Below are positions 57-54,395 of a stretch of DNA of 64,000 nt, piece by piece. The notes below the pieces were generated by a model. It searched no databases, was not told the DNA's origin, and saw only the letters and a list, made by a program, of their open reading frames with translations. The position numbers were made by a program, and so were the translations under genes. Numbering within the stretch: position 1 is the first letter of the stretch; every line of letters begins with the position of its first letter. This DNA comes from an uncultured bacterium (lineage in GTDB: Bacteria; Omnitrophota; Omnitrophia; Omnitrophales; Aquincolibacteriaceae), in assembly GCA_964445745.1 (NCBI GenBank), contig CAYULU010000001.1, positions 35,873 to 99,872 on the forward strand. The letters run 5' to 3'.

Positions 57-3000
57 GTGGAGACGATAGCAGAAGGTCCAACAGATATGACAACACTCCC
101 CACTGCGGTGCCTCTTGCGGATGCTGTTCAGCAGAAACTGGCACAATTTCATGACACCTTAGATGAAATGGGAGCAACGGTTGACATGCCTGTGGAGGAT
201 CGTGCGGCCCAAGTTCGGGAGATCCGGGAAGGACTAACCAGGATTTCAAATGAGTATTTCGGCTTAAGCGGGGATGGAGCTATTGCTACATCTTTTGTGG
301 ATATCTCAAGACGGGTTGCTCAAGAGGAGTGGGCATTGCGACCTGCAGAACCTGCTATTCCAGCACCAAAATCCAGTCAGGATGTTGGGAGTACGATCGT
401 CGCAGTTGTCGGTGACGGAGCGGTGGCCGGTGTTGTGGCAGTAGCGGCTGAGGTAGCGGATGCGGTCGAGACAGCAAAGGCTCTCGGCGTGTCACCGGGC
501 GGCGAGACGCCAGCAGTAGCTACACTTACAAAGGCTGCTGTTGGAGGGCAAGTCATTGCAGGAGCGGCACTGTATGATGCTCTGAAGAAAGGCATTACTG
601 ATCCAACCGTTCAGAGTGCGTTACGAAACGAGCTTGAAAGAAGTCCGATGCCGACCACGACTGAGGAAATGCTTTTTAGTGAGATGGCACAGCTTTATTC
701 ATTGCTGGCGGCGAGTGAAGAAGCCCTTAAGACCCAAGAATATTCAGATCAATACCGAAAGTGGACGGCATTTGTTAACGCGGGACTGAATGCCGTTTTA
801 ACGAGACATTACGAAAAAACAAGGTACCAGGGAACGGCTGAGGAGGCTTATCCTGGAGATCCCTCGATTGTTAAATTAGTGCCTTACACAAGGACGAATT
901 CCACTTCGCGTTATGACTCGTGGAGTGCGTTTGCCGGAGCGGGACTTCGGACCGGCAGTGACATGGTTCAGTTCAATGAAGTACTAGAGGCCGAAGCGGC
1001 TTCTGCTCTGAGCAATTACCAGATCGCAGTGGCCCAGGTGATACAACAAAAACTTTTTCACATGACTGAAATCGCTACGCTCAATGAACGGTTGAATCGG
1101 CTTGATGCGATTAAGAGAGCTTATCTTGATAAAATTCAGAGTTTGCAGGAGACCCTCAGCAAATCTCACGCTTCACTGCCGGCGCTAAAACGACAGTTGG
1201 AAGCGTCCCTAACAAGCCTTGAAATTGCCAGATCAAACATTTTGGCGTCTCGAGACAGGCACAAGACCCGGCTCGCGTTTTTAATGGGGCGTGATCCCAC
1301 ATTTGCGCATAACGATAAGGACTACACCAGCTATGTTGAAACGCTAACCTATGACACGATCCGTAATGCCGCGCTGACAGATGAGCGCACGGATGACGGG
1401 ATCCGCATTATCGTCGAACAAGCTCAGAATTATATTCTTCGCCGCTCGGCTGAACTGGATAAGGTGCTCCCCGGTCTTAGCTGGCAGTTGACGGCTCCTG
1501 AGGCCCTGGTAAGCCTTGGAGATGAAAGTGATTGGACGGCGAGGGTCAATCTCTTTACCTTTGATATTGCTTGGTCTTTCAAGGATTACATGGAGAACCA
1601 GTGGGTGAACGCAAAAACCGAAGCGGCGAAAGCCTCGGTGATGGGCAGGATGGTTGATATCCAACATGATGCAATTAAGCGGCTCTATGAACTTCGCTCA
1701 CTTCAGGCTTATGTTCAACAGATCAAGAAACAAAGCACAACGGAACTGCTTGTTGTTGAAGCCTTGCTGACTAGCGTGACCCAAAAACCTGTGCGCGATA
1801 TGGATCCGATCGCCGCGGCCGATCAATATATTCTTTTACTGGACCAGATTGCGTCTGCGGAAGGGGAACTCGTTAAATTGGAAAATGCTGAAGCCGAGTT
1901 AACCAAACAGCTTGACGGGATTAAGAACGGAATGACTAAGCTGGTTGAGGAAAATCAGGAGATCGCTAAGGAGGTGGGCTTTGATCCGGCCGGTGCGAAA
2001 TTTCGTGAAACCGCGGAATTCGGTTATCAGCAATTGACGGACAATGTTAATACAGAAGCTAACAGTCTTGTGGCGAGCTATGAGGACGCTCAAGATAAAG
2101 ATGCATTTATTCATGAACTATTGGCACCTAGCTCCCGTCTGGCGGCCGGTCAGTATCAAGCGGCGGCGATGCGGCTAGACCGGGTGCATCAGGAAAGGTT
2201 GCGCCTTTTTGCGTACCTGAATGCCGGTTTCGGAGCTTCGCTCGAGGACCCTGGTGCGTGGACCTTTGTTGTGAACGGCGGGGTTGGTTTTGACATTCCT
2301 CTTCTGAGTTTTACCCGAAGGGCCGCGAAGTATTCAGCAGACGCGGCCCAAGAACGCGCTGATTCGTATTTGCTAGATCTTGAGACCCGGACGCATTTTG
2401 AACTCAAAGTGTTGCTTGACCGGCTTGCGTTCATGGGAAAGCAGATTACGGACCAGACAAATCGCGTTCAAACCGCTCAGAAAGTTCTTGCGGAACGTGT
2501 CGTGGAGGTCCGTAAACGCCTTGGGGAGAGAGGGATCGTGGTTGATGATGAAACTGGCCGTATCCTTGATGCGCTCTCGGCGGGTCAAACGGATGAATTA
2601 ACAAAACTCATTCCGGTCTTGGTTGGTAGGCCTATGGCTGAGCGGCTTGAAGAAAAAATCTGGGAAGCTCTGGCGGGTGCGGCGAATGAATTGGCAAAAG
2701 AAAAAACCGCTCTGTCCGCAATGACTGATAACCGGGTGAAGGTTCAGCTTCTTGTCAAAAGGCTCGTGACGCCGGACTTTCGATCGGTTCCTTCCGCGGA
2801 AGCTTTGACGCAGGCCAATAAGGAATTTACCGACGCTGACTATCAGGCTCAATTAAAACGAGTCACCAATCCTTACTTCCGGTTTCTCAATGAGAATGGC
2901 ATATTTTTACCGTCAGCAGCCAAAGATTTGAGGACAATGGAGGGTGTGTTAGCAAGGTTCCTTCCGGAGATGAAGGAGGCGGCGGATTCAGCGTGGGCGA

Positions 3001-6000
3001 AGTATCCGAAGTTTAGAGAATCGAAACAAGCCGGTGATGCTGAAAAAGAGAGGTTGATTGCTGGCGAGACAAAGAGGTTAGAAGAAAAACGAGAGGAGTT
3101 GGCTGGCGCAAGAAGGCAACTTGATCTCGAAAAACCCGATGAGAAAGCAGATAAAAAGACCCAACGGGCGTGGCAAAAAAGCCTTAGTGATCTAGATAAA
3201 AAACAACAGAAATTGGACGAGGAATTGCTGGAACTCGGGAAAGTCGAAAGTTTGATACGGACTTATAAACTTTTTGAGGAGTCCCAAGGGAAACTTCAGC
3301 GTCTAGTCGGTGATGCCAATAATCAGTCGCTCGAGGATCAGCGCCATGCGATGCGGGAGCTCCTTGAGGGGCTTGTCACCGGTACGGAATCTTATTTAAC
3401 TTCCGAATATCTTCTTGCCAAGATGCTTGACCTCGGAGCGTATGAATCCCGTGATGACTGGTATCAGGGCATCCGACAGATGCTAGGATTTATCGGGGAC
3501 GAGGGGACCTCAGTGTTCGGGTACACGGGCAGGATCGAGGCGATCCAGGCGGCGTTTGTGAATGTTGAAAAAGCTTGGGCTGCCATGAAAGCGGATCTGG
3601 GTATATATGGGGGAGTTGGATATCAGCGGTCCAGAGTTCAGCCTGAGACCGGTGAAGTTACTACAGGTTCGGTTTTTACGGTTGGTTTAGGAGGTATATT
3701 CAACCATTTAAAACGAGTGATTTTGGGAGCCCGATCCGGTTCTCAACAAACCGTGGCCCAACTATTAGCGGAAAGTTCCGGCGAAGTCATTGCGCGTGCC
3801 AAAGCCCATGCCCAAGAATCGAATGAAACATGGGGGATCCAAAGCGAGATGGGAAAACTGGCGGCACGGATCGAGCTTTATGAAAAGATCAAAGAGGAGT
3901 TTCTGCAATGGCGTGCCTCCTATGAACCAAGACCCGACGGTGTACGAACCAATGTAGATCGGTTACGGTCTCTCCTTGGTCCTGATCGCACGACAGATGA
4001 AAGTTATAGCTTGAAAACGGCTGATCTGGAGGCACGTATCCAAAGTGATACGGAAGCTATTCGGTATTTAGAGGCTCAACTGAAGCGCCTGGGTTTTTCA
4101 CCGAGTGTGATTCGACAGGGAACGGCGCATGCCGAAGGCTTCCAGTCGGAAACAACCGCGCTGGCCCCGATTGGCGAGCAGTTGCGGGAGATGAGTCGAG
4201 AAAACTACAGCAGGCAGTCCGTTACATTGAATTCCATGTTGGATTCGGTCCTCGCTCGATCGACCGCAGGACCTTCCGCTTATGCGACTTCGGCATCAAT
4301 GACACAATCGCCATTTTACCGCGATGCGGGGGTTTTTTATCAAAGCCTGGATGCGGATGCCGGGTTGCCGGGCGCTGACAGTAATCGCTTCGCGGTTTTT
4401 AGCTGGAGCGGCGCCGATCTTTTCGGGAGTCAGAAACAAACCTACACTCTTATGCTGCGCCATACGAAGAGCCTTGAAGATTCGGCGGTCAAAGAGAACG
4501 AACGGGTGATTCAATCCAAGGTCCGGAGCATTGTTTCAGCGGCCAGCCGGTTGCGCGTTTTGAACCGAATGCAAAAGCTACTCGCGGATCAGGTGTCCGG
4601 ACTTCAAAAGCTTGAAGCAATGATCGGCGCGAGTCGTTATGAACACGGTATCAAAGCAAGAAGTTTTGATGCTTTGGAAACCATCGCGTCACATGAATCT
4701 GAGGACGCGTTTGCCGCTAACTTGAGCGCACTCTGGGCCGAAGTCAAGGGGATGAGCGTCGGCGAAGATGAGAAAAAGAAAATCTTTTACGACCGCCTCG
4801 CGGATCTAATGAAGGTGGAAGAAAATAGTCTGGCGAAGGATCTCGATAGTCTTAAGAGACAGGCTGGTGAATTAGGGATCGCTCTGGATCTTGTTGAAGG
4901 ATTGGATCTTACGCAGGTCGGCAATCTTGAAAATTACGAATCGGATGAAGCGGTTCGCGCCCGGATTCGCGAAGAGATTAACAGGCAATTTGTCAAAACG
5001 CTGAATCAGAATCGCCTGCAGGTTTCTGTGAAGCTTGGCCTGAGCCATCCGTCCCATCAGTCCGCGCTTTCAGAGGGCGAGCCGTTCCTCGGGTTTGGCG
5101 CTTCTTATCTCATTTATGATTCTAATCTCCAGGCGATGATTAATTTTTGGGAAAACCGCGGATCCATCGAACAACTTTGGGCGAGGCAGGGAGATCAGGA
5201 TGATAAAGTTCGCTGGCTTGAGCTTGGCCTCGACGTTGAGAAGCTTCAAAAGGAGGTCGAACTGCGCAAGCAGGTCGTGGAATCTGTCGCGGTAGCGTAT
5301 CAGATTGCTCGTGAGCGGGCACGGCGCGATGGCTATCCGGACGCCCCGATTGATGCCGCGTTCCGCTACATGAACGAACTCAAGGCTTACAAAGGGGCTG
5401 TGGACGCTTATTGGGAAGCCAGTCAGCGAATGATTGATTTTGCCAAAGAGAAGAAATTTGAAATCGAACTGCCGCGCGGCACTGAAGATTCGATCGAGCG
5501 CATCAAGGCCATGATCCCGAAATGGATCGAAGATGATACGACCGAGGACGTAACTGCTCCGAAATATCTTGACGAGACCGTGAAACCGGAACTGATCGGC
5601 GAAGGCACACGCGCCGCAGATTTCTCAGTGGATGAAACATTGATGTATAAGGACCAGCAATTGGCCACTGCTGTTTCAGATTTACTCAAAACTTTGGGAA
5701 TAGCTGACCTTTCTGCGGAAGCCACTCTAAGCCAGATTAAGGACCGGAAAGATCTTGAAACGGTCATGGTGAATATTTTCGGGAGGGTGGCGGAGCGGTA
5801 TGGGCGAAGAGATCCGGCCGCTTGGGTGGGGCAGGTCGCCAAGTCTTATCAATCTCTTACAAAGGATCAATTTTTTGAAAAGACCGGATTTATGGAGGTC
5901 GGCCTTGGCGAAGAGATCTGGGGTAACTTGTTCAGTCAGTGTTTTTCGATGGGGCCTTCGGCCCACAAGTTGCTCGACCAAAGCGGTATTGATATGAATC

Positions 6001-9000
6001 AGCTTGCCATGGCGGCATTCATGGGCGAGTTGGGCCAGTTGGCGGCTTCCCGTGGTGAAGATGGCGATTCCCAAAAGATAGCTCAAGCGCTCGTCAATGA
6101 TTTCCCGGGCGCGATTGCCGCTCTTGAGAGGATGCGAGGGCAGTCGCCGGGGACCTATTCTCTGAGGAGCCCGGTTGAGGGGGCGGAAGTTCTGACGCTC
6201 GTTCTTTATCGAGCGATGGGAGATGAAGCGTTGAGGGACTTAACATTTGACAAGATACTTGAGAATGAGGATCACAAGCGTGCGATCGAAAATCTTTCTC
6301 CTGAATTCAATCTGAATAATATTTTTCCGGGAATTATGGGTGTTGAACGTAATAAGGACGGTTGGGTGGACGGGTGGAAAGAGACTACGAAGTTTCTGTC
6401 GATCGCTTCCGGTCTTTATGATGTCGAGACCCAGACGGTTAAACTCCGTGAGATCCCGGTGGGTGATCCGGAAGAATTTGCTTATGTTATGGCCCAGAAC
6501 ATTGCGACTATCCTGGCACATCCGCGCCCCGGCCCGGACGCGAACCCGGATCAGATTGCTGATTATCAAAAGATGATGGAGCAGATGGCCTATCTGACGG
6601 CTCGATTCTCGCATCATCTCGCAAACTCCACGAATTTGACCATCAAGGAATCAGATTTGACGAGCACGACCTACCTCCGGCTAAAAGCCCTGGAAGCAAA
6701 GATGATCGATGAAGAAAAGACTCAAATGATCGATCCTGTGTCCGGTACGGTGGTGACTTTAGAAAATGTCAAAATTCGAAAACAGGCGGCCCGTGATGCG
6801 GAAGTCGAAGGGCGCCGGATGTCGAACGCGCTCGCTTATGTGAATGATGTCCTTTTTGGTTCCGGGCATGATGCCGGAGAAAATCGGAAGGAGTGGCTTG
6901 AAAAAGATCTCGCGGAGCGGCTCAGGCTCACCGAAGACAGAGTAAGGCTTGAAGATGATTTCTGGGGCAGAAAGGAACTTCAGGGTTATTTAAGTGAGCT
7001 TACCACCGGAGCTGATGGTAAAAAATATAAAGGTGATCGCCCGGCGACGGCGATGGAAATTTATAAAGACAAACAGCAGGTTGGAGGAAGTATTTCCAAC
7101 ATGGCTTGGGAAGCGCTCGGAGAAACCGGGAAGACGCTTGATCGTGAGTCCTTGGCGTATATGGAAACACTAAGCGCGGAGATAGCGGTTCTTGAGACCC
7201 GCATAGTTCACCCTGCCACTTCCGCGGCTGATAAATTGGCGGCGCAGGACACAGTGAAAGGTAAAAAATTCTTGCTTGAGCGCTTTAACCATGCCAAGGC
7301 TAAAAAGGTAGCAGACTATACGGTTCTTATGGGCGAAGAAACCGGCAGGGGTGATAAGTCATGGACAGAAAGTGACCGGATTGCGCGTGTGATCGCGACA
7401 CGCAGAGTCATGAGGGATTTGCGCCCCAAGGCGGAAGGTTTGCTCGGGGAGTTGAGTAATGATGATCCTTACGATGTGAGTATTCTGAGAATGTTGGCGG
7501 AATCGGCGTTGCCGGATATTCAGCCAAGGTACATGCCTGGGGCGGGAGGGTTTGATCGAGAGAAAGACTGGCAGAACTGGGAGGATCTGGGGATTGAACG
7601 GCGGAGGGAAATACTGAACAACCGACTGGATTATGCTCGCATAATCAACGCGCAACTGAAAAAGGAAGGAATCGAGCTACGGCTGAAAGACACGAAAGAC
7701 ACGCCGGTTAATTTGCGCGGTAAGGACATGGGGATGCTGATAGCGGACGCGATGGAGGCGAGCGGGGAAACGGGAAACAAATTGGGTTGGGAAGCTGTTC
7801 AGCATATTGAGAAACTTGAAAATGAAATAATAGAACTTAAGGCGAAGATTGCAAGAGATGCCACGCCAGATCCAACGGTTCAGGCTCAATTAAACGAAAA
7901 ATTGGAAAACTTGGCTGTTTGGAAAGCTGCGCAGAAAAAAGTGGCCAAAGATTATGAAGTGCGGCAGGGGTGGGAAGACTCAAAGCGGATTGAGCGGATG
8001 GTGGAACTTCGCAAGATCATCAAAGCGATTCGACCCTATGTCGAAAGAATCTACGGTCCGTTGGATGACTCAAACCCCCGCGACTCGGGAATTCTTCGGA
8101 CCTTGGCGGAACTCGTTTATGGAGACGTTCAGGATGCACATATGCTTGGCGCCCTGGGTTTTGACGATGCCGAGGAATGGGCAGAGTGGCGGGACATGGG
8201 CAAAGATAAGCGTCAAGCGGTTTTAACCGGCCGGCTTCAAATTGCCGCAAATCTCAATCGTTCGCTCCAGGATTCGGGCATTGTCCTCGACCTCAAAGAT
8301 ACCAATGTCACCAACTTGGACGAAAAAGGCGCGGATATGGGGCTCTTGATGGCGATCGCGGAAAACCCGGAGGCTTGGAAAGAATTCTTTGGGCTTCAAA
8401 AAGGGAAAGACGGTAGCTGGAGCGTACAGCTTAAGTCCCCGTATCCTTCCCGAATCAAGGCTTTGTTTGAGATGGTGGAGGAAGAGCGCGGCCAAGCACT
8501 TGATCCTGCCAAGTTTTCGATCGAGGGCTTTCTGCGCGCAACAGATCCAACTGGAATTCGAGGTTCGATGTCGGTGAGAAGGCAGCAGGCAGATTGGTTG
8601 AGTGTAGCTAGCCGGCTCGTTTTTAATGCGGAGAAAGAACTTGGGGCAGGGGCGGATGTAAAAGCTGTTAAAGCGAGAGCCGTAGAGATAGGAAATAGAA
8701 AGATCGAAATTTATAAAGTTGCGAATAATGAAGGAATGGCTCTGACAAGAAATAATCTCGAATTCGAAGATGAAAATCTTGAATCTCTGCAGAAGAGCGA
8801 CGAGGGTCTTACGGCGCAAATTTATTATCGGTGGATCAAAGAAGCTAGGGGCGCTCGCGAAAAAGCCGGGGAAACAATTTTGGCTGATTTAAATGAAAAG
8901 AAACCGTTTTGGATGCATCCAAAAGAACTGATAGCGATGAGAGCCAAGGTCGTGGGGCGAAAAGAAGAATCGAATAATCCGGGTCTAGCGAACGAGCCGG

Positions 9001-31456: not shown

Positions 31457-31487
31457 GTCCTGCGTGACAATTTTGAAGCCTCCCCCG

Positions 31488-31955: not shown

Positions 31956-31972
31956 AACAAGATCGTTGTTCA

Positions 31973-43555: not shown

Positions 43556-43733
43556 TATATAATAAGATAAAAAATACTATAAAAACATCCTTGAAATAGC
43601 TTCGCTGTGATGGCATGCTTTAAGTAGATGTAAATAATCAACATATAAAAATTAGATCAGCTTACTACCGTTGGCTGTCTTGACGGGCTGGCGTGTTGAG
43701 GAACTTCGAACCTTTAGTAAGACAACATTTTTT

Positions 43734-46700
43734 ATGAGCGATAAAACTATCAAAAACAAGAGTGTTCAATTTCGGGTTACTGCCCTTGCGGTCTTGGTCT
43801 GTTTTATAACCACGAGCGTATCGTTACCTGTGTCCGCAGATGCTTCGTCCGCAGGTCCTGCTGTTCCAACCCTTTTGCCCTTTGCTGAGTTGACCATTCC
43901 AGATGAGTTGGGAACCATGACGAAAGCGGTTGGAGCTCAAAGTGTGGCGGCGGGTGATCCGGGAAAAACCAGTGTCCAGGATTCTTCTCAACGAACCGTT
44001 ATCCTGATTCAAGATGCCCATGCCGTGAATGATGCCCAGAATAAAATTCAACAAATAATCGCGCATCTGCAGACCCATCATTATGCCGACGTGCTCCTTG
44101 TGGAAGGGGCGCAAGGTCGTTTAGACCCCACGATACTCCGGAATTATCCCGATAAAAATGTAAAACAGAGAGTCATCAACGAATATCTCGAGCGAGCAGA
44201 GCTTGCCGGTGTGGAATCTGCCGCTGTATTAAATGACACGCTTGGCCGTTTCGAAGGAGCGGAAGACTGGGCCCTTTATTCGGAAAACTTCGATGCCTAT
44301 CAGCGAGCGCAGGCGGAAAAAGAAAGTCTCCTGGACGTCCTGTCGGGTTATGAGCATAAGCTCGAAATGGAAAATACCGGTCGAATTAATTCGAGGCTGG
44401 AGGATTTTCTGAAACAGTGGACAGGGTTTCGATCCGGCTCTGTTTCCTTTCATGACATGCTTATTTCCCTGCAGGAGTTTTCAAGTCTGGCGAAAGAGGG
44501 GGATGGTTTCTCAGAGCTCAAAAGAATCCTGGATGCACTGGGTTATGAGAAATCAAGCCAACCGACTGCGCTCGAACCTGCGGTGAAAAAAATGGCCGCC
44601 GAATTCAAACAGAAATTTGCGAACGTGATGGATGTCCGTGACCAGGCGAACTTTTACATGAACTATCAGAAATTCCTGACGGGGCAGTTGGGAGCAGGTG
44701 AAATGCTGAGTCATCTTCTTCGTCTGGGACGGAAGTTGGGGAAGGAACCCAGGCTCAGTCCGGAAATGCGTCGTCTTCTGGGGCACACGCAGACTTTGGC
44801 CGCGATCAAGGGCAACAGACTTTTTGAGGAGCTGAACCGGTTTCTTGTGATGGTCGCCATGAGCCTCGCCCAAAACTCCGACGATGTAAGCACGGTCGAG
44901 CGATATGAAAAATTGTTCATTCTTGAAGATCTTGTAAAACTGGAGTTGACCCATCACTCGATATCCTCATTAATGAAATCTGGAGCGCACAGTACGAAAG
45001 TCGAAACGAGTTCCCGTGCCCCTGATTTACAGGCCCCCGACAAAATCAAAGTCCTGAATTTGGATGATTTTGATTTGGGATTTCTTTCAGATTTCGGATT
45101 GAGCGTTTCGGATTTTGAAAAAAGACTGCAACCGGCCATTGATTTTTACCGGGCCGCCTTGGAACGTGACCGGGTGTTCTATGAGCGGATTAAAGCAGTG
45201 CCCGAAAGCGATCGTACGATTGTCCTGATTGCCGGAGGCTTTCATACCAGCGGGATCGAACGACTGCTTCGTGAGAATCAGGACTCGTATGCGGTTGTGA
45301 CTCCCAGAATCGAATCCCTCAAAGGATCGGAAAATTATTTTCGCGTCATGAATAACGATTTTTCCTACCAGAAATATCTTGGCACTACCTACTATGATGG
45401 ATTGATCCGTCATGCGATTCGCAAATTGACGGAAGGCCTCGGTGAGGCTGAGCTCCGGCAAACAGCCAAGCGTTGGCGCGATAATCTTATCCGGGACCTT
45501 GCCTCGCAAAACAGGATCACGGACTTCGGGCAATATAGCCACTATCTTGATGATTTAAATCAGGTTTATGCTGAACGTTTTGCCAAAGATCTTAAACCTC
45601 TTACCAAGGAAGATATCCTGGAGGTGATTAAAAAGGAGTTAGAGAAGTTTAAATCAGATGTGCTGGTTTCACTGCGGAGGCAAGTCGAAGGTGATCTGCA
45701 AAGTACCACGGCCGGGATTCAGGGTCTGGAGGATCAAAAAGAATCTTCCGGCACAAAGCCTTCGGATCTTGCGCTTGATATTCCCGTTTCCAAGCCATCG
45801 ATGTTGAGCGCGGCTCTAGCGCTTGCTCCCAGGGTTCCGATATTAAAACTGCCTCTCAGTGAAGTCCGCCAGCCGACGGTAGTGGCCAGCGATATTCCTG
45901 AAGCCTTGAGGGAACCTGTGTCGCTAGAGGCCAGCGGCATTGAGATCGGGCCGGGGGTAGGAGAAGAAGGTTCAGGGCGGAGTGAGACCCGGGTTAATGA
46001 TGCGGTGAAAGAGAAAATTGAAAGCATTCGTGCCGGATTGCATCAGTTACTGCGCTGGCTTGTTGCAAAAATGGCGGTCGGCCCGTGGCGGGAAAAGATG
46101 CTCGGGTTTTTACTTGAAAGCGACCATGTGAAAATTCTGATCGACGACGGGAAAAAACATCAGCTTAAGCGATACGTCGCGAAATACGAGCCGAAGACCG
46201 GGCGCGTATATTTGTCTCAGGTGTTTCCGGGACATTATTCAAAAGAGAGCCTTTTAAGCCATCTCCCCGGGGCTGCTCAGCCGGAGATCTATAAAGGGAA
46301 AGGGGTGGAATTAATTTTGGGGGATGATGGTCGACCGTATCTATCAGTTAAATTTGATCAACCGGTGCTAATTGTTGATAGCGATCAGAAAATCCTTCAG
46401 TCAGAAAACATCAAGCCTCTTCTGGTGCCGCTTCCTAAAGTGAGCGAGACAATTGCTTTTCTCAAGAAAACGGTGCCGGGTTTCAGCCGTTGGCAGAAGG
46501 CGCGTGTGAAGGCACTGGAACAGCAAAAACTCGAAGCAGCGAGATTATGGTTTAATGCAGGCCGTTTTATGGCAAGAGAGTCCAAGGCCTTTGATAAGGA
46601 TGGGGATGTCGATACACTGGAATACGGATCCAGCCGATTTGAGGTCGGCATATCGGATTCCGGGGAGGAAATTGTTGTTAGGGTATTTAATCGTGATACG

Positions 46701-49700
46701 GGAATACTGGACGGGATTCTTTTCTACCCGTTTTTGGTTGGTGCCTGGTTCACGGCAGGTCAAGGATACGCGAATGAGATCCCGGTTTTGGATCCTGGTC
46801 TTCCGCCGATGGCTCTGAGATTTAGCTTGGGAGACAAGGGGGTTTATGTTTCCTCGGTTGCGGAGATTTCTGTCTACTTGCAGGCGGATGGTGTTCGTTC
46901 TGAGGAGTTAATACCGAGTTTCGAAGAAGCTGTGGCCAAGAATCCTGATTACCCCGGTGTTCTCCTTCCTCACACTGCCGGGAAAATCGAAAAACTAAAG
47001 TTGTTTCCGTTGGAACAGTCTCCGGACATGATAGGTCCTCCCTTTCATGTCAATCCTGAGGGCCCAAATGCCCCTTATATTCTTCGGGCGAGAGCTGAGG
47101 TTCGGAGTGAGGATGGGCGCCGGCCCGCTGGGATGATATCCAATGTTCGTAAGATTCTCATGGCCGGCATCTTATCTATTGCGATGATGAGTTCTGCGAT
47201 TGCGATGTCACCCCGAAGTTTTGGAGCCTTTCAAGGCGGACTTCAGACCCTTGGTTGGTATACAGGAAAAGTTGACCGAAAGGATGGACCCCGGACACAG
47301 TCGGCTGTCAGGACGCTCCAGACCATACTTCGTGATGAATTGGGGTTTACAGGGATTCGTGTTAACGGGCGCTATGACGATCCAGCGACACTGGCGGCAG
47401 TTAAAGAACTCCAGCGAAAGTTTCAGGAGCTCTGGACTGCGAAATATCGGGGCGGAGTGGACGGAGTTTTAGGCCCAGCAACGGCGCCTTTTTTTAAGCG
47501 GTACCTGGAACTTCTCAGAAAAGGGAGAGAGGCCCAAGGGCTTGTCGGTCAGGGTTTGTCAGATTCTGTGGTTTTGCCGTCCTATTTTCTATCGGATCCG
47601 GCCACCGAAGTTCTGAATAACCCAACCTTGCAGGCAGGTTTCTCTGGCTTGGGTTTTCAGGTGATTCAGCGGTTACTGGTATCTCGGCAACTTGTTCCGA
47701 AAACGCAAGAAACCAGGAATTTTATCTACACCTATCTGTATGAGACCCATCAGATAGTTCAGACGGCTAAACAAACGCTGACGGACTCCGAGTTTCAACG
47801 TGTTTTTCATTCAAAAAAATCTGAAATGACTCTGGAGCGGGTGGCCCAACTCGCGATGTTCGTTTTTGATCTGAATAATCACGAGAGCATGGGACATGTC
47901 CATATCAAAAACAAACGAGGCAGCGATTTTTCTCAAGCGCAAATCGTGATAGGGACTCGAAAAGAACTTTTTCAAAAAAACTTGTTTAAAAAAATAGCGG
48001 GAGTTACAGAGACTCAGCCTGCGACATCGAAGGAGTGGGAAGAATTTCTCGTAACTGGTTCTTCCGCGAACCGAAACCGCATTGCGATGGTGATTATTCA
48101 TTTTTTAAGAGCTCCCCGAGGCTTGTCTTTTGAGAAATTGTTCCCGATAGATACTGTGGAAGGATCGAAAATTTGGGGGAAATATTACCAAACCCAGTCG
48201 CTTGAAAAAGCGATGAGGAATTTCAGCGAAAGGGCTAAACGTTTTAGAGATGATTGGGGCCAAGTGACACAATATTATTTGTCACACCAGCGCTCGGAGG
48301 TGAGGGCTGAGGGAAGCTTGCCTGATGATGTTCGTGATTCGATGTTGCCGGAAAAATTACCGAATGTTGTGATACTGTCCCCGGTTTTTAATGAGCGGGA
48401 TAAGCTTCCGGAGGTTTTGGAAAATATTAAACAGCAGAAATATTTAAAGAATGTGATTTTTGTTGATGATGGTTCAAGTGACACGACGGCGACGTTTCTG
48501 CGGGATTCGGGTGTTTATTTTATTTCTTTTGCCAAAAACGCACAGAAAGAAGGCGCTCTTTTGAATGCGCTGGAAATCTTGCAGAATCGCTATGGGTTGC
48601 CCGATTATTTTGTGGCGATAGACGGAGATTCTTATTTTGGCGGAGAGAACATCCTCGCTGTTCTGAAGAAAGCGATTAAGGAGATGGAAAAGGGGGGCAA
48701 TGTGGCCCGCCCGATTGATATTGAAGCTCATTTGACCGCCCGTTCCGGGGCTCTCGAATGGCTCCAGGGGATCCACTGGTATTTAACGATGGGGATCCGC
48801 ACGATCTATTCAAAAATTTCTTTTTTCCCTCCGAGTTTGTTGGGCGGAGGAAATATTTTTAAAACCCAGGTCTTTTTGGATGCCGTTGCGAAAAGAAAGG
48901 CCGGTTTCGAAGCAGGGGATGTGGAATTAAACGGGATTATTAGTTCGATGGGGAAAGTGGCGAAACCCCTTTCGACCGTCAGGGTCAGAACCGAAGTTTT
49001 TAAGAAATGGAATGACTTTTTTAAGCAACAAAGAAGGTGGGCTCGTGCCCAGCTCGAAGGAACTCCAAACTGGTTTTTTGCTGTTTTTCTGTCAGGCCTT
49101 GTTTTATTTGACGCGTTCATTTTATGGAATCTCCCGGCATTTCTGGCCCTGACGGCGGTGTTAGCGGTTGCGTCTGTTTTTTCGGTCATGTTGCGTTACG
49201 GGGTTATGCAGTTCCAGAAGTTTGCTAGCGCGGGTTCGAAACGAAATTTGCCTGAACAACAATCGATTCGTGTCCGGTTTTGGCGTGATGTTGTGTTGTT
49301 ATCGCCGTTACTTGCTCTTTATGAAACTGTCAATATGTTTACCATGTTCAACGTGGCAACCTTCCAACAATTGCAGGCTCCCAAAAGTATTCCTCCGTGG
49401 ACCGATACGACTGCTACACGCTCCGAGATTCGTAGCGATGAGATTGATCCTAATCCTAATGATTATGGTTTAAGGAGGGGGAGACTGAGCCGGGATTCAG
49501 AAATAATGCTGGGGTCTCTTGCGGATTATCTTTCCAGAAACCAGATAGCCAGAGATGACGCGAACCTGATAGCTCGGACACTAGTTCGTATGAAACCTCT
49601 GTCTCTGGAACTACTCCGTGATTGGGGAGTCCTCACAGCGGAAGAAACCAGGCTGGTCGCCGCCGGGGATATTGGCAAAATCATGATTTCTCAGGATATG

Positions 49701-52700
49701 AGTAATTCCCTTGCCCAAAGAATGCGGCGTCTTCTGGAATCTTATGATCAACGAGAATTTTATGATCAACGACGCTACACCAGGGCACAAAAGGATGTTC
49801 TCTTGTCGCGGCTTATTCCCGTTGACCAGATCGATGCAATTTTGGCCCGAAGTCCGGACCTTAATGACGGCGTTGTGATTGAGATGCTGGACAGCCGCTT
49901 TTCTCTGATTCTTCAAATGGATCGCGCCATTGAAATTGCGGCAAGTCTGCGAGAGTTGGGCATTGTTTCTAGTCTGGCCTGGAGAATTTTGATCAAGCAG
50001 GGGACTGATCGGGCATTGTCTTGGGCCTCTGACGCACAGGCGGTCGTTGAAAGAATTAAGGACGCTCAAGGAGTGAACGGACAAAGAAATGCCTGGCTGA
50101 TGATTATGAATCACGGCATTGAAAAAGTGGAAGAAGCTGAACGTCGAGGGACACTTCCTAAATTGATGAACGCGTGGGACACACGCTCCGAGCTTCGCGA
50201 CAATGACATCCCCGAAGGGCTGAAAGAGGAGATTCAGAGGGCTTATGGCAGGGCTGGCGGGCCGGAGATTTTTGCAGAACATTTATCCATGGAAAATATT
50301 ATCCATCAGGTTCTGGAAGATTTTGGCAAAGACAACAACGTGAAGCTGGTAGAAGGAAAGGATTTTGAGCTTTTTTGGTACCGGCAGCGTTTTGGAATTA
50401 TCATGAAAAATGCCGAATCTAACAAATATAACACGGACGAGGTCAAAGCCGAAATTATTGAGCGACTTAAATCTTATTACCATAAGTATAAGCCCAAAAT
50501 AAATGTAAACGTTGAGCCTCTTGATGATGGAGTTGAAGTATCTTACCGGATCACTCCGGCCTCGCTGACGGAATTCGGAAAGTTTTTCGGAACGGCAGAT
50601 ATTCAATATTATGATGAAGGTCACAGATTCCCGAGGCCTTTTACCCCCGAAGAAATACGGGAGAAATTTGTCCATAAGGCGGAAATGTTCTTGAGAGGAA
50701 TGGAACTTTATGAGCTACCACCTGATGCAATCGAAAAATTCAAGAAGTGGGCATTGGGTGTTGTTGCCTCTGCACTTGCCAATTCGGACCGGTATGGACG
50801 GAAGGAGATTATCCGGACGGAGTCGATCAAGCGTAGTGTTCGTGAAAGACATGAGGACGGATACAGGTATACGACCTTGAATGCCATGAGGAAAAATGCT
50901 GAGGGAAGTGTTCTGTTTGATTTCTTGCTTCGTGAGTTACGTCGCCGCGAAAATGCCAAACGAGTTGTCTATCTAGCTCGCGGTGCGGGGAGCTTGAAGA
51001 AAGTCGCACGGTATGCGAATTGGTTGTTTTCTCCCGAAATTGTGCAGGGGGCTCGTGAGAATTTTCTTTTTATGCTTTCGCAGGATACCGAATGGGATGT
51101 TATTCGTGACATTAAAGATCTATTCCGATTTTCTCCTGAGACATACCTCCCGGGGGAAGGGGGCGATCCTGATGAGTTTGTGGAAAGCGTTTCCTATGAT
51201 GTCTTGGAAAGACAAGCGATGGAAATTCTTGAGGATTTAGACAATGGGAAGAGTCGTTTGATGCACGGACCAGGACTGGGTGCGCGGGAAATTAAACCTC
51301 ACGGCGAGGATGGAAAAGGCCCTAATCGATTTGCTCAGTTTTTTGACAGAATCTATGACTGGGTCAAGGAGGCAGGGATTGTGGACGGTCTTCAACCTGG
51401 GGAGACTATCCTGGTCGTGGATGAGTCTTCCAGCGGGACTTACCCCTGGATTTTGAAATATGTAATTGAAACACGATACCGCGCTGAGTTGGCAAAACGG
51501 TTGGGAAAACCTGTATCGGAGATCAAGCTCCAGGTTATTTTTTGGGCGGGCGGTCGATCGAATAATGACTATGGAATCGTAGGTTTTCCTATGTTTTACC
51601 CCAATGACTATAAGAAAACTTTTGGGTTCGGAGATTTTGCCAGCCACGCAATTAGCGTTGCAGGAGAAAATATGCCGCATCCGGTAAAGGTTGGTCGGTA
51701 CAGCAAGGGGGATGCGGATGAAGGGGAGTATGAGGTGGAAGAAACTGATGTGCTTTTGGGGGCTTACCTGAATTCGATGTTTATCTACAATGAAGTGGTG
51801 AAATTTTATAGCGAGCTGAATGGTATTGTGCTCAAAAAGGACAAAACCGAACAAGAGTGGAATCTGGTTTTGCATTACCTGGCACTTAAACTGCCCCCAG
51901 AGGTAGAGGTCACCCCTGCGGCGCTCGCCCGTGCGTCCGGATTTGCCTTAACGGCAGATGATATCCAGAAGGAACTGTCTCGCTCTGAAACGAGGGGGTC
52001 TGTTCCTTTGAAGGACGGGTTTGAGAAATTCGTTGAACGGGTGGATGTGATCCGAAGAGAATGGGACACTTCTGTAAAGAAAGCAGATGAAGGAAAACAA
52101 GGGGCTAAAGAATCATTCGCATCGGAAGCTGTCGTGAGTCTGGGCGCTTTAAAGAGTGGTCATCTTTGTCTGGTGCGAGGCAATTTTGACAAGCTGACTC
52201 AGGGTCTTCGTACCGCTCTGGATGCGGTCCGGGATGAATTTCCGGTATTTAAATCAGGGGATGAAACTGACCCATTATCGGGCGAGCTCAAAATGCTTAC
52301 TGAGCTTGTTCGCAATATCTCGCAACATGTCCAGAGTAAGGAAGGGATTGTGGCGATCCAGTTCGATAAGGAAGCCAAACGGTTGTATGTGGCAGCGATT
52401 GATCGAGGCGCCGGTTTTTCCTTCCGGACGCAAGGTGCTGAAGAAGCGTCTGGCATTGCAATTCGTGATGCGGGGCATTTTGTACAAAGTGGAATTAATC
52501 GTGTTGGCGAAGGAATTGGAATGAGAGCTGTTGTCCGGCAATGCGAACACGTTTTAATACGCAGTGGCGATAAAGAATGGTCTGATGAAGATCTTAAGTC
52601 GCAAGGGGTAATTCCGGGAGTTGAGCGAAAGGATGGTCTGCCGGGCTCTCTTGTTTCGGTGAGTGTTAATCTTGAGGAATCCATGCAGATCATTAATAAC

Positions 52701-54395
52701 GCGATAAAAATACGTATGATCGATAAAAAGTTAAAGGATCTTGCGAATGCGGTCGGCAACTTCTCGCGTTTTTCAGATCTTCGGTGGGAGTTTGCTTCTG
52801 AAATTCCCTGGCCTGAATTAGTAAGAGTTACGTCGCCGGAAGAACAATATCGTCCTCGAAATGGTGTGGACAGAACTTATGGCACACAAGAAAACCGCTG
52901 GAATTATTGGTCCAATCAAATTGACGTCCGTTATGCTTTCTTGCATCTGATCGGTAATGCCCTGGAGCAGAAGCGGCCTCTGACAATTAAAGAGGTTGAA
53001 AAATATCTACGGACAGCTCACCACCGATTAATTTTCGGGGTGAATGATCAATCGCCCTATTATTCTCCGACGTTGCTTAGCATGGGATTTCCTAATCCTG
53101 AGGTAGCTTTGAGAGCGGGCACTGGTAAACTTTACTTGACTAAAGAAGGCATTACCGGTTACACGCAAAAGCTCAACGTTCTTCTGGAGCGTTTAGCGCG
53201 GCCCAAGTTGACCGTTGAGGATATTATTCAGCCTCTCTTTGATCTTCATCGAGCTATCATTGTCCCGGAAGTGCCTCGAGAATCCAAAGGGGCCTTTGCC
53301 TTTCCATTCGCGAATAATTCATTTTCGATGAATCAAATCAATGCCGTAAGGCGTTTGCTGGGGCACGCCGGAATTTCTCACGACGGGATCGATTTTGCGT
53401 TGCTTCAGAACAGAAAGGATGTTACTCGCGCCTTAAAATATTTCACAGCTCTGATGCGCGGGGAATCGTACCCCTCCGATGAGAATGCCTTTGCCCCCAC
53501 AGTGGCAGGCTCAGCGCAGGCGCCTTCAGATGTTCGCCGCGCTGAGATCCGCGAATCTCCGGGATTTGAGCCTCTTGAACTGGAAGGGGAGTTGGAAGGT
53601 CAGTTGAAAGATCGGGGGTTTGCGCTTTTGGCGGAGCTTGAAAAACGGCCGGAGCTGAGGGATTATGTCCTAGGCTCGGAATTTGAAGAATTGGTCAAAA
53701 AACTGTTGGGAATCTTTGGGGATGTGGCAGTGTTTGTGAAGGGTGTCCGAGAGGCGATGATTCCTAAGATTTTGGCGGCTGAAACAGTGGATCTGGAACT
53801 TGCGAGTATCTTGCCGGATGCGATGTCAGCTTTGACAGCCACGTTGAAACAGGTTAAAGGAAATGTGACCATTGCCGTGGGTGATATGCTGGATGTCATG
53901 GATCAGTTTATAGAAATTCCAAGCGAGTATACAAGTCAGGTCAATGAAATTGGCGTGACGGGAATGTTGCACCCTAAGGTCCGGACTCTTTTGCGGGAAA
54001 GAGGCGTTACCATCCGATCCGTCAAGCCAAAGTGGAATTTTATTTCCCGAAATCAAAGCCAGGTACCTTATGTGACCGATACGAATTCCCTGGTTGAAAT
54101 GCTTGCCGGTGTTTTTGACCCGATTCTGGCGGATCAGGTCGAAACTGGGGATGTTTCGGTACAGCGCTATCGGGACCGATTTTTGATTGTGGCGGCGATC
54201 CATCTTGCTGATATCAGGAGAATCGGAAAGGCGATGAGCCAATCCGAGATACTGGACGAACTTTTGCGACGTCTCAACTTGAAGGAGCAGGAAGCGATGA
54301 TTGAGATCCGGGGAGGGAGGTTTGTCGTCTCCAGCACGGCGATCCAGCTTTACCTCAAGATGCAAGCTGAAAAATCCATCCAAAGGGCCGCTTAA
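43734..54395 (+). CDS. Giant multidomain membrane protein (about 3550 aa). Signal anchor plus TraB/GumN-like N-domain (paralogous to giant protein 2), a PG-binding domain, a processive GT2 glycosyltransferase with TM helices, and a GHKL-ATPase-like domain.
   Basis: 10.7 kb ORF. Track start is TTG at 43671; I prefer the ATG at 43734 (MSDKTIKNK plus hydrophobic helix plus SADA). PG_binding_1 LQTLGWYTGKVDRKDGPRTQSAVRTLQ. GT2 VILSPVFNERD...VIFVDDGSSDT...AIDGDS...FKQQRRWARAQ. GHKL ELVRNISQH...AAIDRGAGF...GEGIGM. Confidence 0.9.
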   Translation: MSDKTIKNKSVQFRVTALAVLVCFITTSVSLPVSADASSAGPAVPTLLPFAELTIPDELGTMTKAVGAQSVAAGDPGKTSVQDSSQRTVILIQDAHAVNDAQNKIQQIIAHLQTHHYADVLLVEGAQGRLDPTILRNYPDKNVKQRVINEYLERAELAGVESAAVLNDTLGRFEGAEDWALYSENFDAYQRAQAEKESLLDVLSGYEHKLEMENTGRINSRLEDFLKQWTGFRSGSVSFHDMLISLQEFSSLAKEGDGFSELKRILDALGYEKSSQPTALEPAVKKMAAEFKQKFANVMDVRDQANFYMNYQKFLTGQLGAGEMLSHLLRLGRKLGKEPRLSPEMRRLLGHTQTLAAIKGNRLFEELNRFLVMVAMSLAQNSDDVSTVERYEKLFILEDLVKLELTHHSISSLMKSGAHSTKVETSSRAPDLQAPDKIKVLNLDDFDLGFLSDFGLSVSDFEKRLQPAIDFYRAALERDRVFYERIKAVPESDRTIVLIAGGFHTSGIERLLRENQDSYAVVTPRIESLKGSENYFRVMNNDFSYQKYLGTTYYDGLIRHAIRKLTEGLGEAELRQTAKRWRDNLIRDLASQNRITDFGQYSHYLDDLNQVYAERFAKDLKPLTKEDILEVIKKELEKFKSDVLVSLRRQVEGDLQSTTAGIQGLEDQKESSGTKPSDLALDIPVSKPSMLSAALALAPRVPILKLPLSEVRQPTVVASDIPEALREPVSLEASGIEIGPGVGEEGSGRSETRVNDAVKEKIESIRAGLHQLLRWLVAKMAVGPWREKMLGFLLESDHVKILIDDGKKHQLKRYVAKYEPKTGRVYLSQVFPGHYSKESLLSHLPGAAQPEIYKGKGVELILGDDGRPYLSVKFDQPVLIVDSDQKILQSENIKPLLVPLPKVSETIAFLKKTVPGFSRWQKARVKALEQQKLEAARLWFNAGRFMARESKAFDKDGDVDTLEYGSSRFEVGISDSGEEIVVRVFNRDTGILDGILFYPFLVGAWFTAGQGYANEIPVLDPGLPPMALRFSLGDKGVYVSSVAEISVYLQADGVRSEELIPSFEEAVAKNPDYPGVLLPHTAGKIEKLKLFPLEQSPDMIGPPFHVNPEGPNAPYILRARAEVRSEDGRRPAGMISNVRKILMAGILSIAMMSSAIAMSPRSFGAFQGGLQTLGWYTGKVDRKDGPRTQSAVRTLQTILRDELGFTGIRVNGRYDDPATLAAVKELQRKFQELWTAKYRGGVDGVLGPATAPFFKRYLELLRKGREAQGLVGQGLSDSVVLPSYFLSDPATEVLNNPTLQAGFSGLGFQVIQRLLVSRQLVPKTQETRNFIYTYLYETHQIVQTAKQTLTDSEFQRVFHSKKSEMTLERVAQLAMFVFDLNNHESMGHVHIKNKRGSDFSQAQIVIGTRKELFQKNLFKKIAGVTETQPATSKEWEEFLVTGSSANRNRIAMVIIHFLRAPRGLSFEKLFPIDTVEGSKIWGKYYQTQSLEKAMRNFSERAKRFRDDWGQVTQYYLSHQRSEVRAEGSLPDDVRDSMLPEKLPNVVILSPVFNERDKLPEVLENIKQQKYLKNVIFVDDGSSDTTATFLRDSGVYFISFAKNAQKEGALLNALEILQNRYGLPDYFVAIDGDSYFGGENILAVLKKAIKEMEKGGNVARPIDIEAHLTARSGALEWLQGIHWYLTMGIRTIYSKISFFPPSLLGGGNIFKTQVFLDAVAKRKAGFEAGDVELNGIISSMGKVAKPLSTVRVRTEVFKKWNDFFKQQRRWARAQLEGTPNWFFAVFLSGLVLFDAFILWNLPAFLALTAVLAVASVFSVMLRYGVMQFQKFASAGSKRNLPEQQSIRVRFWRDVVLLSPLLALYETVNMFTMFNVATFQQLQAPKSIPPWTDTTATRSEIRSDEIDPNPNDYGLRRGRLSRDSEIMLGSLADYLSRNQIARDDANLIARTLVRMKPLSLELLRDWGVLTAEETRLVAAGDIGKIMISQDMSNSLAQRMRRLLESYDQREFYDQRRYTRAQKDVLLSRLIPVDQIDAILARSPDLNDGVVIEMLDSRFSLILQMDRAIEIAASLRELGIVSSLAWRILIKQGTDRALSWASDAQAVVERIKDAQGVNGQRNAWLMIMNHGIEKVEEAERRGTLPKLMNAWDTRSELRDNDIPEGLKEEIQRAYGRAGGPEIFAEHLSMENIIHQVLEDFGKDNNVKLVEGKDFELFWYRQRFGIIMKNAESNKYNTDEVKAEIIERLKSYYHKYKPKINVNVEPLDDGVEVSYRITPASLTEFGKFFGTADIQYYDEGHRFPRPFTPEEIREKFVHKAEMFLRGMELYELPPDAIEKFKKWALGVVASALANSDRYGRKEIIRTESIKRSVRERHEDGYRYTTLNAMRKNAEGSVLFDFLLRELRRRENAKRVVYLARGAGSLKKVARYANWLFSPEIVQGARENFLFMLSQDTEWDVIRDIKDLFRFSPETYLPGEGGDPDEFVESVSYDVLERQAMEILEDLDNGKSRLMHGPGLGAREIKPHGEDGKGPNRFAQFFDRIYDWVKEAGIVDGLQPGETILVVDESSSGTYPWILKYVIETRYRAELAKRLGKPVSEIKLQVIFWAGGRSNNDYGIVGFPMFYPNDYKKTFGFGDFASHAISVAGENMPHPVKVGRYSKGDADEGEYEVEETDVLLGAYLNSMFIYNEVVKFYSELNGIVLKKDKTEQEWNLVLHYLALKLPPEVEVTPAALARASGFALTADDIQKELSRSETRGSVPLKDGFEKFVERVDVIRREWDTSVKKADEGKQGAKESFASEAVVSLGALKSGHLCLVRGNFDKLTQGLRTALDAVRDEFPVFKSGDETDPLSGELKMLTELVRNISQHVQSKEGIVAIQFDKEAKRLYVAAIDRGAGFSFRTQGAEEASGIAIRDAGHFVQSGINRVGEGIGMRAVVRQCEHVLIRSGDKEWSDEDLKSQGVIPGVERKDGLPGSLVSVSVNLEESMQIINNAIKIRMIDKKLKDLANAVGNFSRFSDLRWEFASEIPWPELVRVTSPEEQYRPRNGVDRTYGTQENRWNYWSNQIDVRYAFLHLIGNALEQKRPLTIKEVEKYLRTAHHRLIFGVNDQSPYYSPTLLSMGFPNPEVALRAGTGKLYLTKEGITGYTQKLNVLLERLARPKLTVEDIIQPLFDLHRAIIVPEVPRESKGAFAFPFANNSFSMNQINAVRRLLGHAGISHDGIDFALLQNRKDVTRALKYFTALMRGESYPSDENAFAPTVAGSAQAPSDVRRAEIRESPGFEPLELEGELEGQLKDRGFALLAELEKRPELRDYVLGSEFEELVKKLLGIFGDVAVFVKGVREAMIPKILAAETVDLELASILPDAMSALTATLKQVKGNVTIAVGDMLDVMDQFIEIPSEYTSQVNEIGVTGMLHPKVRTLLRERGVTIRSVKPKWNFISRNQSQVPYVTDTNSLVEMLAGVFDPILADQVETGDVSVQRYRDRFLIVAAIHLADIRRIGKAMSQSEILDELLRRLNLKEQEAMIEIRGGRFVVSSTAIQLYLKMQAEKSIQRAA

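Follow-up and report, generated by a model that had tools for sequence, protein, structure and literature searches.

The 64,000-nucleotide (nt) stretch of Omnitrophota DNA analyzed here (contig CAYULU010000001.1 of assembly GCA_964445745.1, positions 35,873 to 99,872; hereafter the window) contains three giant genes, and raises the question of what these genes encode and whether their products belong together. The three open reading frames (ORFs), which we call G1, G2 and G3, are uninterrupted, lie on the plus strand and sum to 39,753 nt, i.e. 62% of the window, with housekeeping genes between them, as a preliminary description made from the sequence alone had reported. G1 is the listed ORF at 57..19943 (6628 amino acids, aa); because its frame is open from base 3 (3..19943), it is cut at the 5′ edge of the window and comprises at least 6646 codons. 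G2 (20493..29633) encodes a head-cargo-tail protein of 3046 aa, and an identical protein is on record at NCBI (P0001). G3 is listed at 43671..54395 (3574 aa, TTG start); since its homologues align only from residue ~27-36 onwards, translation probably begins at the ATG at 43734, for a product of 3553 aa. All feature coordinates given below are window positions, and the features of the giant genes are on the plus strand.

Our best explanation is that the three giants are members of one Omnitrophota-specific family of modular mega-proteins, with a conserved head, a string of cargo modules joined by motif-bearing linkers, and a conserved tail; the cargo would form a membrane-tethered enzyme array, and the linkers would serve as recognition sites. 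We consider this explanation, taken as a whole, to be somewhat better than an even bet. The preliminary description had proposed a single family or system, which holds directly for G2 and G3 and, in the case of G1, by way of its relatives (see below).

The shared head and the C-terminal tail

G2 and G3 share a paralogous N-terminal domain, as initially proposed: residues 19-513 of G2 align to residues 36-558 of G3 with 22.5% identity (E 8e-24). The shared region, termed the head, covers residues ~15-520 of G2 (~500 aa) and starts within approximately the first 1-90 residues of every subject, and the G3 N-terminus was matched by 107 of the proteins found with G2. G2 begins with a signal peptide or anchor (20493..20615, judged from the sequence and the AlphaFold2 model), which consists of a basic n-region, a hydrophobic helix at aa 13-34 and an AFA-G site. 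The head itself (20601..22052) has an alpha/beta core formed by aa ~60-180 and 440-520 and split by a helical insert of ~260 aa; its paralogue in G3 lies at 43842..45350 and contains the motifs IQDAH..LVEGA. A hydrophobic segment precedes the head in 70 of 113 family members. Here and below, hydrophobic segments are those of a crude Kyte-Doolittle scan, which found them in all three giants, in agreement with the signal anchors or transmembrane (TM) clusters first described for each.

In an alignment of 23 diverse heads (A1, in G2 numbering), the invariant positions are H88, E116-G117, G152, G168, E170, Y175, F443-Y444, R450, G475-G476-x-H478, P498 and Y511. The AlphaFold2 model built on A1 has a predicted local distance difference test score (pLDDT) of 79.8 and a predicted template modelling score (pTM) of 0.71; it shows the hydrophobic helix at aa 13-34, a disordered stretch, and the alpha/beta core interrupted by ~260 helical residues. 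In the TIKI superfamily, the catalytic set comprises a His-Glu pair and a second His, the pair being His85/Glu113 in Bcr135 (PMC6254334). H88 and E116 of the head are 28 residues apart, which is the spacing of H85 and E113 in Bcr135, and H478 sits in a GxxH motif; most heads have D or E at the first acidic position of the 2His/2Glu set. With moderate confidence, we assign the head to the TIKI/TraB/ChaN/erythromycin-esterase fold with a His/Glu/His(+Arg) set; it may be an active hydrolase. The ~260-aa all-helical insert distinguishes it from the rest of the superfamily (Tiki1/2, RRSP, HopBA1, EreB/EreC, BcR135, ChaN), in that it occurs in this family only.

Several observations speak against the assignment. 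A Foldseek search of the head against the PDB gave no significant match (E > 0.5), though EreC and BcR135 were among the top ones, and a profile search of PDB sequences with the head found nothing. PF04187 reaches 20-21 bits, short of its gathering score of 27.7, and does so in 2 of the 23 heads. NCBIfam contains no model that matches the head. Finally, the G2 subfamily has Ser in place of the first acidic residue of the 2His/2Glu set.

At the other end, the giants finish in ...IAKSA (G1), ...MAASA (G2) and ...IQRAA (G3). The terminal residue is Ala in 93 of 120 proteins examined, and the last two residues of 118 database proteins are SA in 46, AA in 28 and QA in 10. Likewise, 27 of the 33 stop-terminated long ORFs of the loci examined end in SA or AA, compared to a terminal-Ala background of 12%. 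The [S/A]A ending is preceded by ~25 residues with helical hydrophobic periodicity, i.e. an amphipathic helix. BLAST comparison of the C-terminal regions of the three giants revealed no significant similarity beyond the terminal motif. Close paralogues of G2 share its last ~270 residues, always at their own C-terminus. This tail domain (28818..29630, aa 2776-3046, ending in ...IRSEARMAASA) is 92% identical to its counterpart in UBA1443, and 64-66% identical in loci L002, L013 and L019.

Linker motif and cargo modules

The recurrent RSExR motif noted in the preliminary description is present in 9 copies in G2 (0.08 expected), 5 in G3 (0.07 expected) and 2 in G1 (0.10 expected), and in none among the 6178 aa of housekeeping proteins encoded in the window. 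Family-wide, RSE.R is by far the most enriched gapped pentamer (417 vs. 6.4 expected, 65-fold), followed by RAE.R (109 vs. 9.8 expected); RAE.R is likewise the form enriched in members without RSExR. xR follows 444 of 540 RSE tripeptides, with V, L, A, M or I in the x position. On either side of this R[S/A]ExR motif, the sequence shows no conservation and abounds in A, S, G, P and E. One example of a linker peptide is ...AGAESRSESRLSL... A signal at the nucleotide level was ruled out, since the codons of RSExR vary; thus, the constraint acts on the peptide.

In the loci examined, the density of the motif is 0.023 per thousand amino acids (kaa) in ORF segments of 150-500 aa vs. 1.7 per kaa in segments of at least 1500 aa; the first copy lies at median residue 654, just past the head, and successive copies are a median of 268 aa apart. 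The 17 motifs of G2 and G3 all fall outside Pfam envelopes, the G2 copy at aa 595 lies where pLDDT is below 30, and both G2 and G1 have a copy 10 residues from the C-terminus. There is no association of R[S/A]ExR with TM segments, and a full-text literature search on 'RSExR' returned irrelevant papers only.

In G2, the motifs bracket a DUF218 domain, a cupin-type phosphoglucose isomerase (cPGI) module, two ~125-aa two-helix hairpin modules and the tail domain. The head is followed by a hydrophobic segment (22440..22523, aa 650-677) and a first block of HEAT/ARM repeats (22548..24062, aa 686-1190; Pfam and PDB sequence search). The DUF218 domain, which is SanA/ElyC/YdcF-like (25401..25835, aa 1637-1781; Pfam 48.5 bits vs. 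a cut-off of 27.6), matches YdcF in the PDB (3ca8, E 0.002) and is bracketed by RSEVR1603 and RSETR1829. Hairpin module 1 (25977..26348, aa 1829-1952) runs from an RSExR through EKQFQKA and two hydrophobic helices to a further RSExR, and module 2 (27234..27632, aa 2248-2380) is a near-identical repeat of it. Between the two lies the cPGI module (26628..27032, aa 2046-2180; PF06560, 77.9 bits vs. 20.7), which matches PDB 1j3p (E 3.5e-7) and retains both cPGI signatures intact, namely: GREFLRTEGHHH at 2069 and PPGYQHISIN at 2127 (patterns GxExxxTxGHxH and PPxxxHxxxN). A second HEAT block (27963..28370, aa 2491-2626) precedes the tail domain.

In G3, a PG_binding_1 (peptidoglycan-binding) domain (47229..47324, aa 1187-1218; Pfam 31.9 bits vs. 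23) is immediately preceded by a hydrophobic segment at aa 1155-1180. Further downstream, a GT2 glycosyltransferase (48333..49346, aa ~1555-1800; PF00535, 49 bits vs. 23.3) carries DDG, DGD and QQRRW, which is the pattern of processive synthases. It is bracketed by RSEVR1541 and RSEIR1917 and is followed by a hydrophobic hairpin (aa 1815-1892) of only two helices.

The cPGI module of G2 thus resembles the Pyrococcus/Thermococcus enzymes (PF06560), scoring above the Pfam threshold with both signatures, and the GT2 module of G3 resembles processive synthases of the PgaC/NodC/BcsA type, scoring above the PF00535 threshold with DDG, DGD and QQRRW. Unlike the free enzymes, both are single modules embedded in 3-kaa membrane proteins. 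The GT2 module also differs from processive synthases in having two helices instead of a multi-helix channel, and its best NCBIfam equivalog models, PgaC/IcaA and NodC, score far below cut-off. Four of the modules named in the preliminary description, i.e. cupin-PGI and DUF218 in G2 and GT2 and PG-binding in G3, were therefore recovered by Pfam. A nucleotidyltransferase in G2 and a GHKL module in G3, which it had also listed, found no match in Pfam searches of tiles (E≤0.1) or in the PDB, at a sensitivity of HMMER that more remote homology could escape.

This module inventory bears on an alternative in which each giant is an unprocessed, membrane-tethered metabolon: the protein would remain intact with its cargo facing the cytoplasm, the hairpins would be re-entrant anchors, and R[S/A]ExR would be a docking or regulatory motif, for example bound by HEAT/ARM repeats or phosphorylated at Ser, that organizes or switches the modules. 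The near-identical two-helix hairpins that flank the cPGI module would place both of its flanks on one side of the membrane, the cPGI and GT2 signatures are intact and their substrates are cytoplasmic, and Pfam detected no autoprocessing protease of known type. Moreover, HEAT/ARM repeats, which are classic binders of short basic motifs, are common across the family. However, many motif-rich members have no recorded HEAT match (e.g. P0013, which has 18 motifs), and G3 has five motifs and no HEAT. A motif 10 residues from the C-terminus, as in G2 and G1, is oddly positioned for docking, and the signal-peptide-like N-terminal segment argues for at least the head being outside. We regard the metabolon as a serious but doubtful possibility.

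G1 offered no recognizable modules. Neither the whole protein nor, at E≤1, ten 800-aa tiles matched Pfam, a PDB sequence search gave no match, and NCBIfam, against which the last 1313 aa were scanned, returned a single far-subthreshold match. The UDP-sugar pyrophosphorylase initially assigned to G1 did not appear in the Pfam or PDB searches, which homology below the sensitivity of HMMER could have eluded.

Few relatives of G1 were found, and their numbers are lower bounds, as databases may cover or index very long proteins poorly. P0112 is the lone close relative of the last 2947 aa of G1, with 53% identity over ~2000 aa. An exhaustive HMMER search with aa 4339-5538 against 1.84 billion representatives identified six proteins only, five of which are giants of 4.7-7.7 kaa. 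A 900-aa G1 query retrieved no relatives, P0112 (55% identical) included; we attribute this to a word-index limit and do not count it as evidence. G1 itself is in neither of the two protein collections, despite the presence of G2, which is encoded on the same contig. Two of the relatives, P0113 (7569 aa) and P0118 (7727 aa), are collinear with aa 2714-5523 of G1, and the A1 profile identifies the family head at their N-termini (E 5e-108 and 3e-106, respectively). Since these full-length relatives start with the head, G1 probably has one upstream of the window, where the collinearity offset suggests ~1.5 kaa more, for a predicted full length of ~8.2 kaa. From these two head-bearing proteins, together with the shared tail and linker motif, we infer that G1 belongs to the family. 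The order seen here, with a G1-like gene immediately upstream of a G2-like one, recurs in two other genomes (L015, L001).

A tandem duplication of ~180 aa is present in the dark, helical region of G1 (7095..8258, aa 2365-2550 and 2581-2752; phmmer of tiles against G1, iE ~1e-26). Two hydrophobic clusters of ~6 segments each lie at 11931..12719 (aa 3977-4239) and 15285..16634 (aa 5095-5544), the first of which contains an RSEVR found by the motif scan at aa 4053 (nt 12159-12173). Between the clusters lies a conserved soluble core of ~770 aa (12990..15317, aa 4330-5105), for which alignment A3 shows the invariants NGEDE, H, R..GKY and Y.T. The profile of this core matched nothing in the PDB, and an AlphaFold2 model from a six-row alignment (pLDDT 39) gave no usable fold. 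A GT2/GT48-like 'ED' motif in G1 (HTEDG, NGEDE) was considered and dropped, as the RW of QxxRW is not kept in the relatives and no model supports it. G1 closes with the family tail signature ...LRAEMRAAEAIAKSA-stop (19899..19943).

A direct repeat of ~52 bp is found at this end of G1 (19934-19985 and 20090-20141, 156 bp apart), of which 34 bp are exact (GTCGGCGTAGTGGAGTAACATTATCTCCGCACGC). Its first copy includes the final codons and stop of G1 (..TCG GCG TAG), and G-rich, terminator-like hairpins lie 3′ of the repeats at 20168-20195 and 20212-20232. The repeat could be a recombination footprint at a conserved gene end.

Extent and evolution of the family

The search with G2 identified 111 proteins of 1.7-5.3 kaa, most of which share only 15-20% of the query. 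The named homologues are almost all from metagenome-assembled genomes (MAGs) of Candidatus Omnitrophota/Omnitrophica, and the syntenic loci are likewise from Omnitrophota MAGs, so the lineage guessed in the preliminary description was correct. Conservation in related genomes is broad: the head is present in more than 100 proteins and at no fewer than 474 loci in a scan of one genome per GTDB species, with several in the same MAG. One distant member, P0106 (2529 aa, E 3.7e-8), is labelled Endomicrobium sp., which indicates either a binning issue or an occurrence of the head outside Omnitrophota. About 20 of 77 loci examined have two head-bearing genes in divergent (head-to-head) orientation. 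An orthologous locus with such a divergent pair is present in L024, L025, L026, L028, L029, L032-L040, L042, L044, L045 and others, while tandem head-bearing copies occur in L019 and L030.

The cargo regions of the family carry widely differing Pfam families, among them PGI, TIM, enolase, PFK, class II aldolase, PGM, hexokinase, FBPase, PGK and transaldolase. Other cargo families are GDH, UDP-glucose dehydrogenase, glycogen synthase, amylase, UGPase and kinases, and further modules comprise methyltransferases, radical SAM, NUDIX and His-kinase/receiver domains. The earlier idea of a cell-envelope machine devoted to nucleotide-sugar and polysaccharide chemistry is therefore too narrow, as the cargo is made up mostly of enzymes of central sugar-phosphate metabolism (PGI, TIM, enolase, PFK, PGM, aldolase, hexokinase and PGK), together with glycogen and nucleotide-sugar enzymes, GDH, methyltransferases and His-kinase/receiver modules, and differs between orthologous loci.

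How the giants evolve can be seen in UBA1443 (L001), whose locus is syntenic with the window and encodes ArgS, HflX and MiaA that are 92.6%, 93% and 88% identical, respectively, to those found here. The nadE-argS-miaA-hflX block follows a G2-like gene in L002, L005 and L013 as well. Across the syntenic loci, alignment of G2 is confined to the head (53-65% identity) and tail (35-92%), and the interior is unrelated, bar an occasional DUF218 or HEAT piece. In UBA1443, the G2 head is 65% identical to that of the window, and the G1-like gene is 21-37% identical, in patches. Since only the ends align, the ends have been retained and the cargo exchanged; and since the giants are far more diverged than the neighbouring genes, they have diverged much faster.

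Another reading is that the giants are effector arrays, exported or displayed at the surface for interaction with a host or prey in the manner of MARTX or polymorphic toxins. The ends would serve for export and anchoring, the swappable cargo would be delivered to a partner cell or act on that cell or its envelope, and the linkers would be release sites. Conserved ends with swappable cargo resemble the logic of these toxins, TIKI-fold domains serve as toxin effectors in RRSP and HopBA1 (PMC6254334), and divergence is very fast relative to the neighbours (ArgS 92.6%, G2 head 65%, cargo unrelated, G1-like gene 21-37%). In addition, 32 of 113 members lack any hydrophobic segment downstream of their signal-like N-terminus, and a link of Omnitrophota giants to predation or episymbiosis has been published (10.1101/2023.11.21.568195; 10.1101/2025.01.14.632903). 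However, the cargo consists mainly of housekeeping-type sugar-phosphate enzymes that need phosphorylated, cytoplasmic substrates. Toxin, adhesin and secretion-system genes are absent from the window, where the neighbours are housekeeping genes, and the cluster resembling a type II secretion system (T2SS) or type IV pilus (T4P) that is reported beside very large giants was not seen there. We judge effector arrays to be distinctly improbable.

The same loci were informative as to whether the ORFs could be artefacts, i.e. chimeric assemblies, or neighbouring genes joined through sequencing or frameshift errors. In two related loci, the G2-like gene changes frame between head and tail: L001 (UBA1443; 10001-18807, frames 2/3/1) and L013 (SO_2017_LW3_130; 10001-21264, frames 2/1). 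These changes, which also count against the plan proposed here, may reflect assembly error, decay into a pseudogene or genuine splitting. Also in favour of an artefact, P0112, the nearest relative of G1, begins after an in-frame stop 97 nt from the contig end, and G1 is missing from both protein collections searched. Against it, stop-free frames of 9-20 kb are impossible by chance at 50% GC, and GC content and GC skew are uniform over the giant genes. Head and tail share a single frame at L002, L005, L006, L019 and L021, more than 100 independent proteins from many studies invariably have the head at the N-terminus and the tail at the C-terminus, and G1 is collinear with 7.6-7.7-kaa proteins of other samples. 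An artefactual origin is extremely improbable, and we conclude that the three ORFs represent real genes.

The giants are separated and followed by genes of housekeeping type: nadE, ogt, argS, miaA, hflX, a tal-pgi fusion, a LysM-amidase, an SNF symporter, a CitMHS transporter and lysS. The transaldolase/PGI fusion (958 aa; PF00923 and PF00342) lies between G2 and G3 at 36586-39462; as a separate gene, it provides the genome with a conventional PGI besides the cupin PGI module within G2. The ogt-like ORF (31416-31955, TTG start) overlaps the 3′ end of nadE (31456) by 41 nt, and its true start may be further downstream. A region of ~1 kb (40400-41400) has a lower GC content (0.46) and no convincing ORF, and, like the rest of the window, gave no tRNA or Rfam match. 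A 70-aa ORF at 41415-41627 encodes what we take to be a KTSC-domain-like protein.

Topology, mechanism and relation to known systems

Taken together, these results define a common architecture and suggest a mechanism for it. A Sec-type signal peptide or anchor is followed by a head of ~500 aa, TIKI/ChaN/erythromycin-esterase-like and with a helical insert, which would be exported; the basic n-region, hydrophobic helix and AxA-like site have the look of a Sec signal, which argues for export of the head. Next comes a variable string of cargo: HEAT scaffolds, two-helix membrane hairpins and enzymes of sugar-phosphate, nucleotide-sugar or glycan metabolism, represented here by DUF218 and cupin PGI (G2), PG-binding and a putative GT2 synthase (G3) and an unrecognizable multi-TM core (G1). 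The modules are joined by non-conserved linkers bearing the strict R-[S/A]-E-x-R, and a C-terminal amphipathic helix ending in [S/A]-A-COOH closes the protein. The polypeptide would stay tethered to the inner membrane with its head outside; in G2, the cargo would, as predicted from hydrophobicity, be kept cytoplasmic by the segment at aa 650-677 together with the two-helix hairpins. Each giant would thereby act as a single, co-translated and stoichiometric array of envelope-proximal enzymes, and R[S/A]ExR would provide recognition sites for cleavage or docking, possibly via the hydrolase-like head or a partner protease.

Several findings sit poorly with this scheme. The head of G1 is deduced from its relatives, and R[S/A]ExR is scarce in G1, with 3 copies in 6646 aa. 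No TM segment is constant after the head, as 32 of 113 members are without any hydrophobic segment there; a functional signal peptide in these 32 would mean that glycolytic-type enzymes are exported, which is biochemically odd. With the segments scanned, the PG-binding domain and the nucleotide-sugar-dependent GT2 of G3 cannot both be placed sensibly. Autoprocessing protease domains of known type (C39, S8 and the cysteine protease domain, CPD) were not found in the window by Pfam, and cleavage at the linkers is a hypothesis of which these data bear no sign.

A stronger version of the cleavage idea is that R[S/A]ExR is the processing code of Omnitrophota giants: the TIKI-like head or a partner would cut at the motif, and each gene would encode a polyprotein that releases or displays swapped enzyme modules at the envelope or towards a host or prey. 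We consider this version unlikely; if true, it would make the giants a bacterial analogue of viral polyproteins and MARTX arrays, made of metabolic enzymes. The family has in common with MARTX and viral polyproteins its conserved ends, its exchangeable and unrelated central modules and a short sequence that recurs at module borders, and a TIKI-fold domain is found in MARTX, as RRSP. Unlike in MARTX, no CPD or other autoprocessing protease, RTX-type repeats or type I secretion system genes were found, and the cargo is metabolic rather than toxic.

Two preprints describe the giants most closely related in character, namely the 'Archaeovorin-type' Omnitrophota proteins of at least 30 kaa (West-Roberts et al. 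2023, bioRxiv 10.1101/2023.11.21.568195) and the 'multi-enzyme metabolic cluster' long proteins of at least 10 kaa (Nielsen & Lui 2026, bioRxiv 10.64898/2026.06.07.730766). These share with the present family the phylum, a signal peptide, TM helices or both, HEAT repeats and long stretches without Pfam matches, as well as embedded PGI, TIM, PGM, aldolase, glycosyltransferase, methyltransferase, His-kinase and receiver domains, and both are suspected of being processed into smaller products. According to West-Roberts et al., the cleavage points are unknown, and the same topology problem arises there, in that glycolytic domains are predicted outside the cell (10.1101/2023.11.21.568195). In terms of signal or TM segments, HEAT repeats and sugar or glycosyltransferase domains, G2 (HEAT, cPGI, DUF218) and G3 (GT2, PG-binding) fit this description, and G1 does so by its TM clusters only. 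Unlike the published proteins, the giants of the window measure 3.0, ~3.55 and at least 6.6 kaa, and unlike the Archaeovorin type, G2 and G3 have no C39 or S8 Pfam match and no adjacent T2SS/T4P-like cluster is present within the window. Neither a TIKI/ChaN-like head nor R[S/A]ExR or an [S/A]A-COOH tail is mentioned in either preprint, as judged by term search of both. Membrane-anchored multi-enzyme giants of Omnitrophota were already known, and the preliminary description was only half right in calling the system undescribed; the head, the tail and the linker grammar are new to the extent of these searches.

Giant genes of Omnitrophota are a recognized puzzle, both as to whether they yield a single polypeptide or are cut and as to why glycolytic-type enzymes reside in proteins with membrane segments or signal peptides. 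The window reveals a tractable, mid-sized class of such giants (2-8 kaa) that follows one plan at hundreds of loci. This plan provides a searchable definition of the family, predicts module boundaries that are useful for structure prediction and for expression of the dark regions, and offers a concrete, testable motif for processing or docking. Finally, conserved ends with swapped cargo, beside slowly evolving housekeeping genes, point to unusually fast modular evolution.

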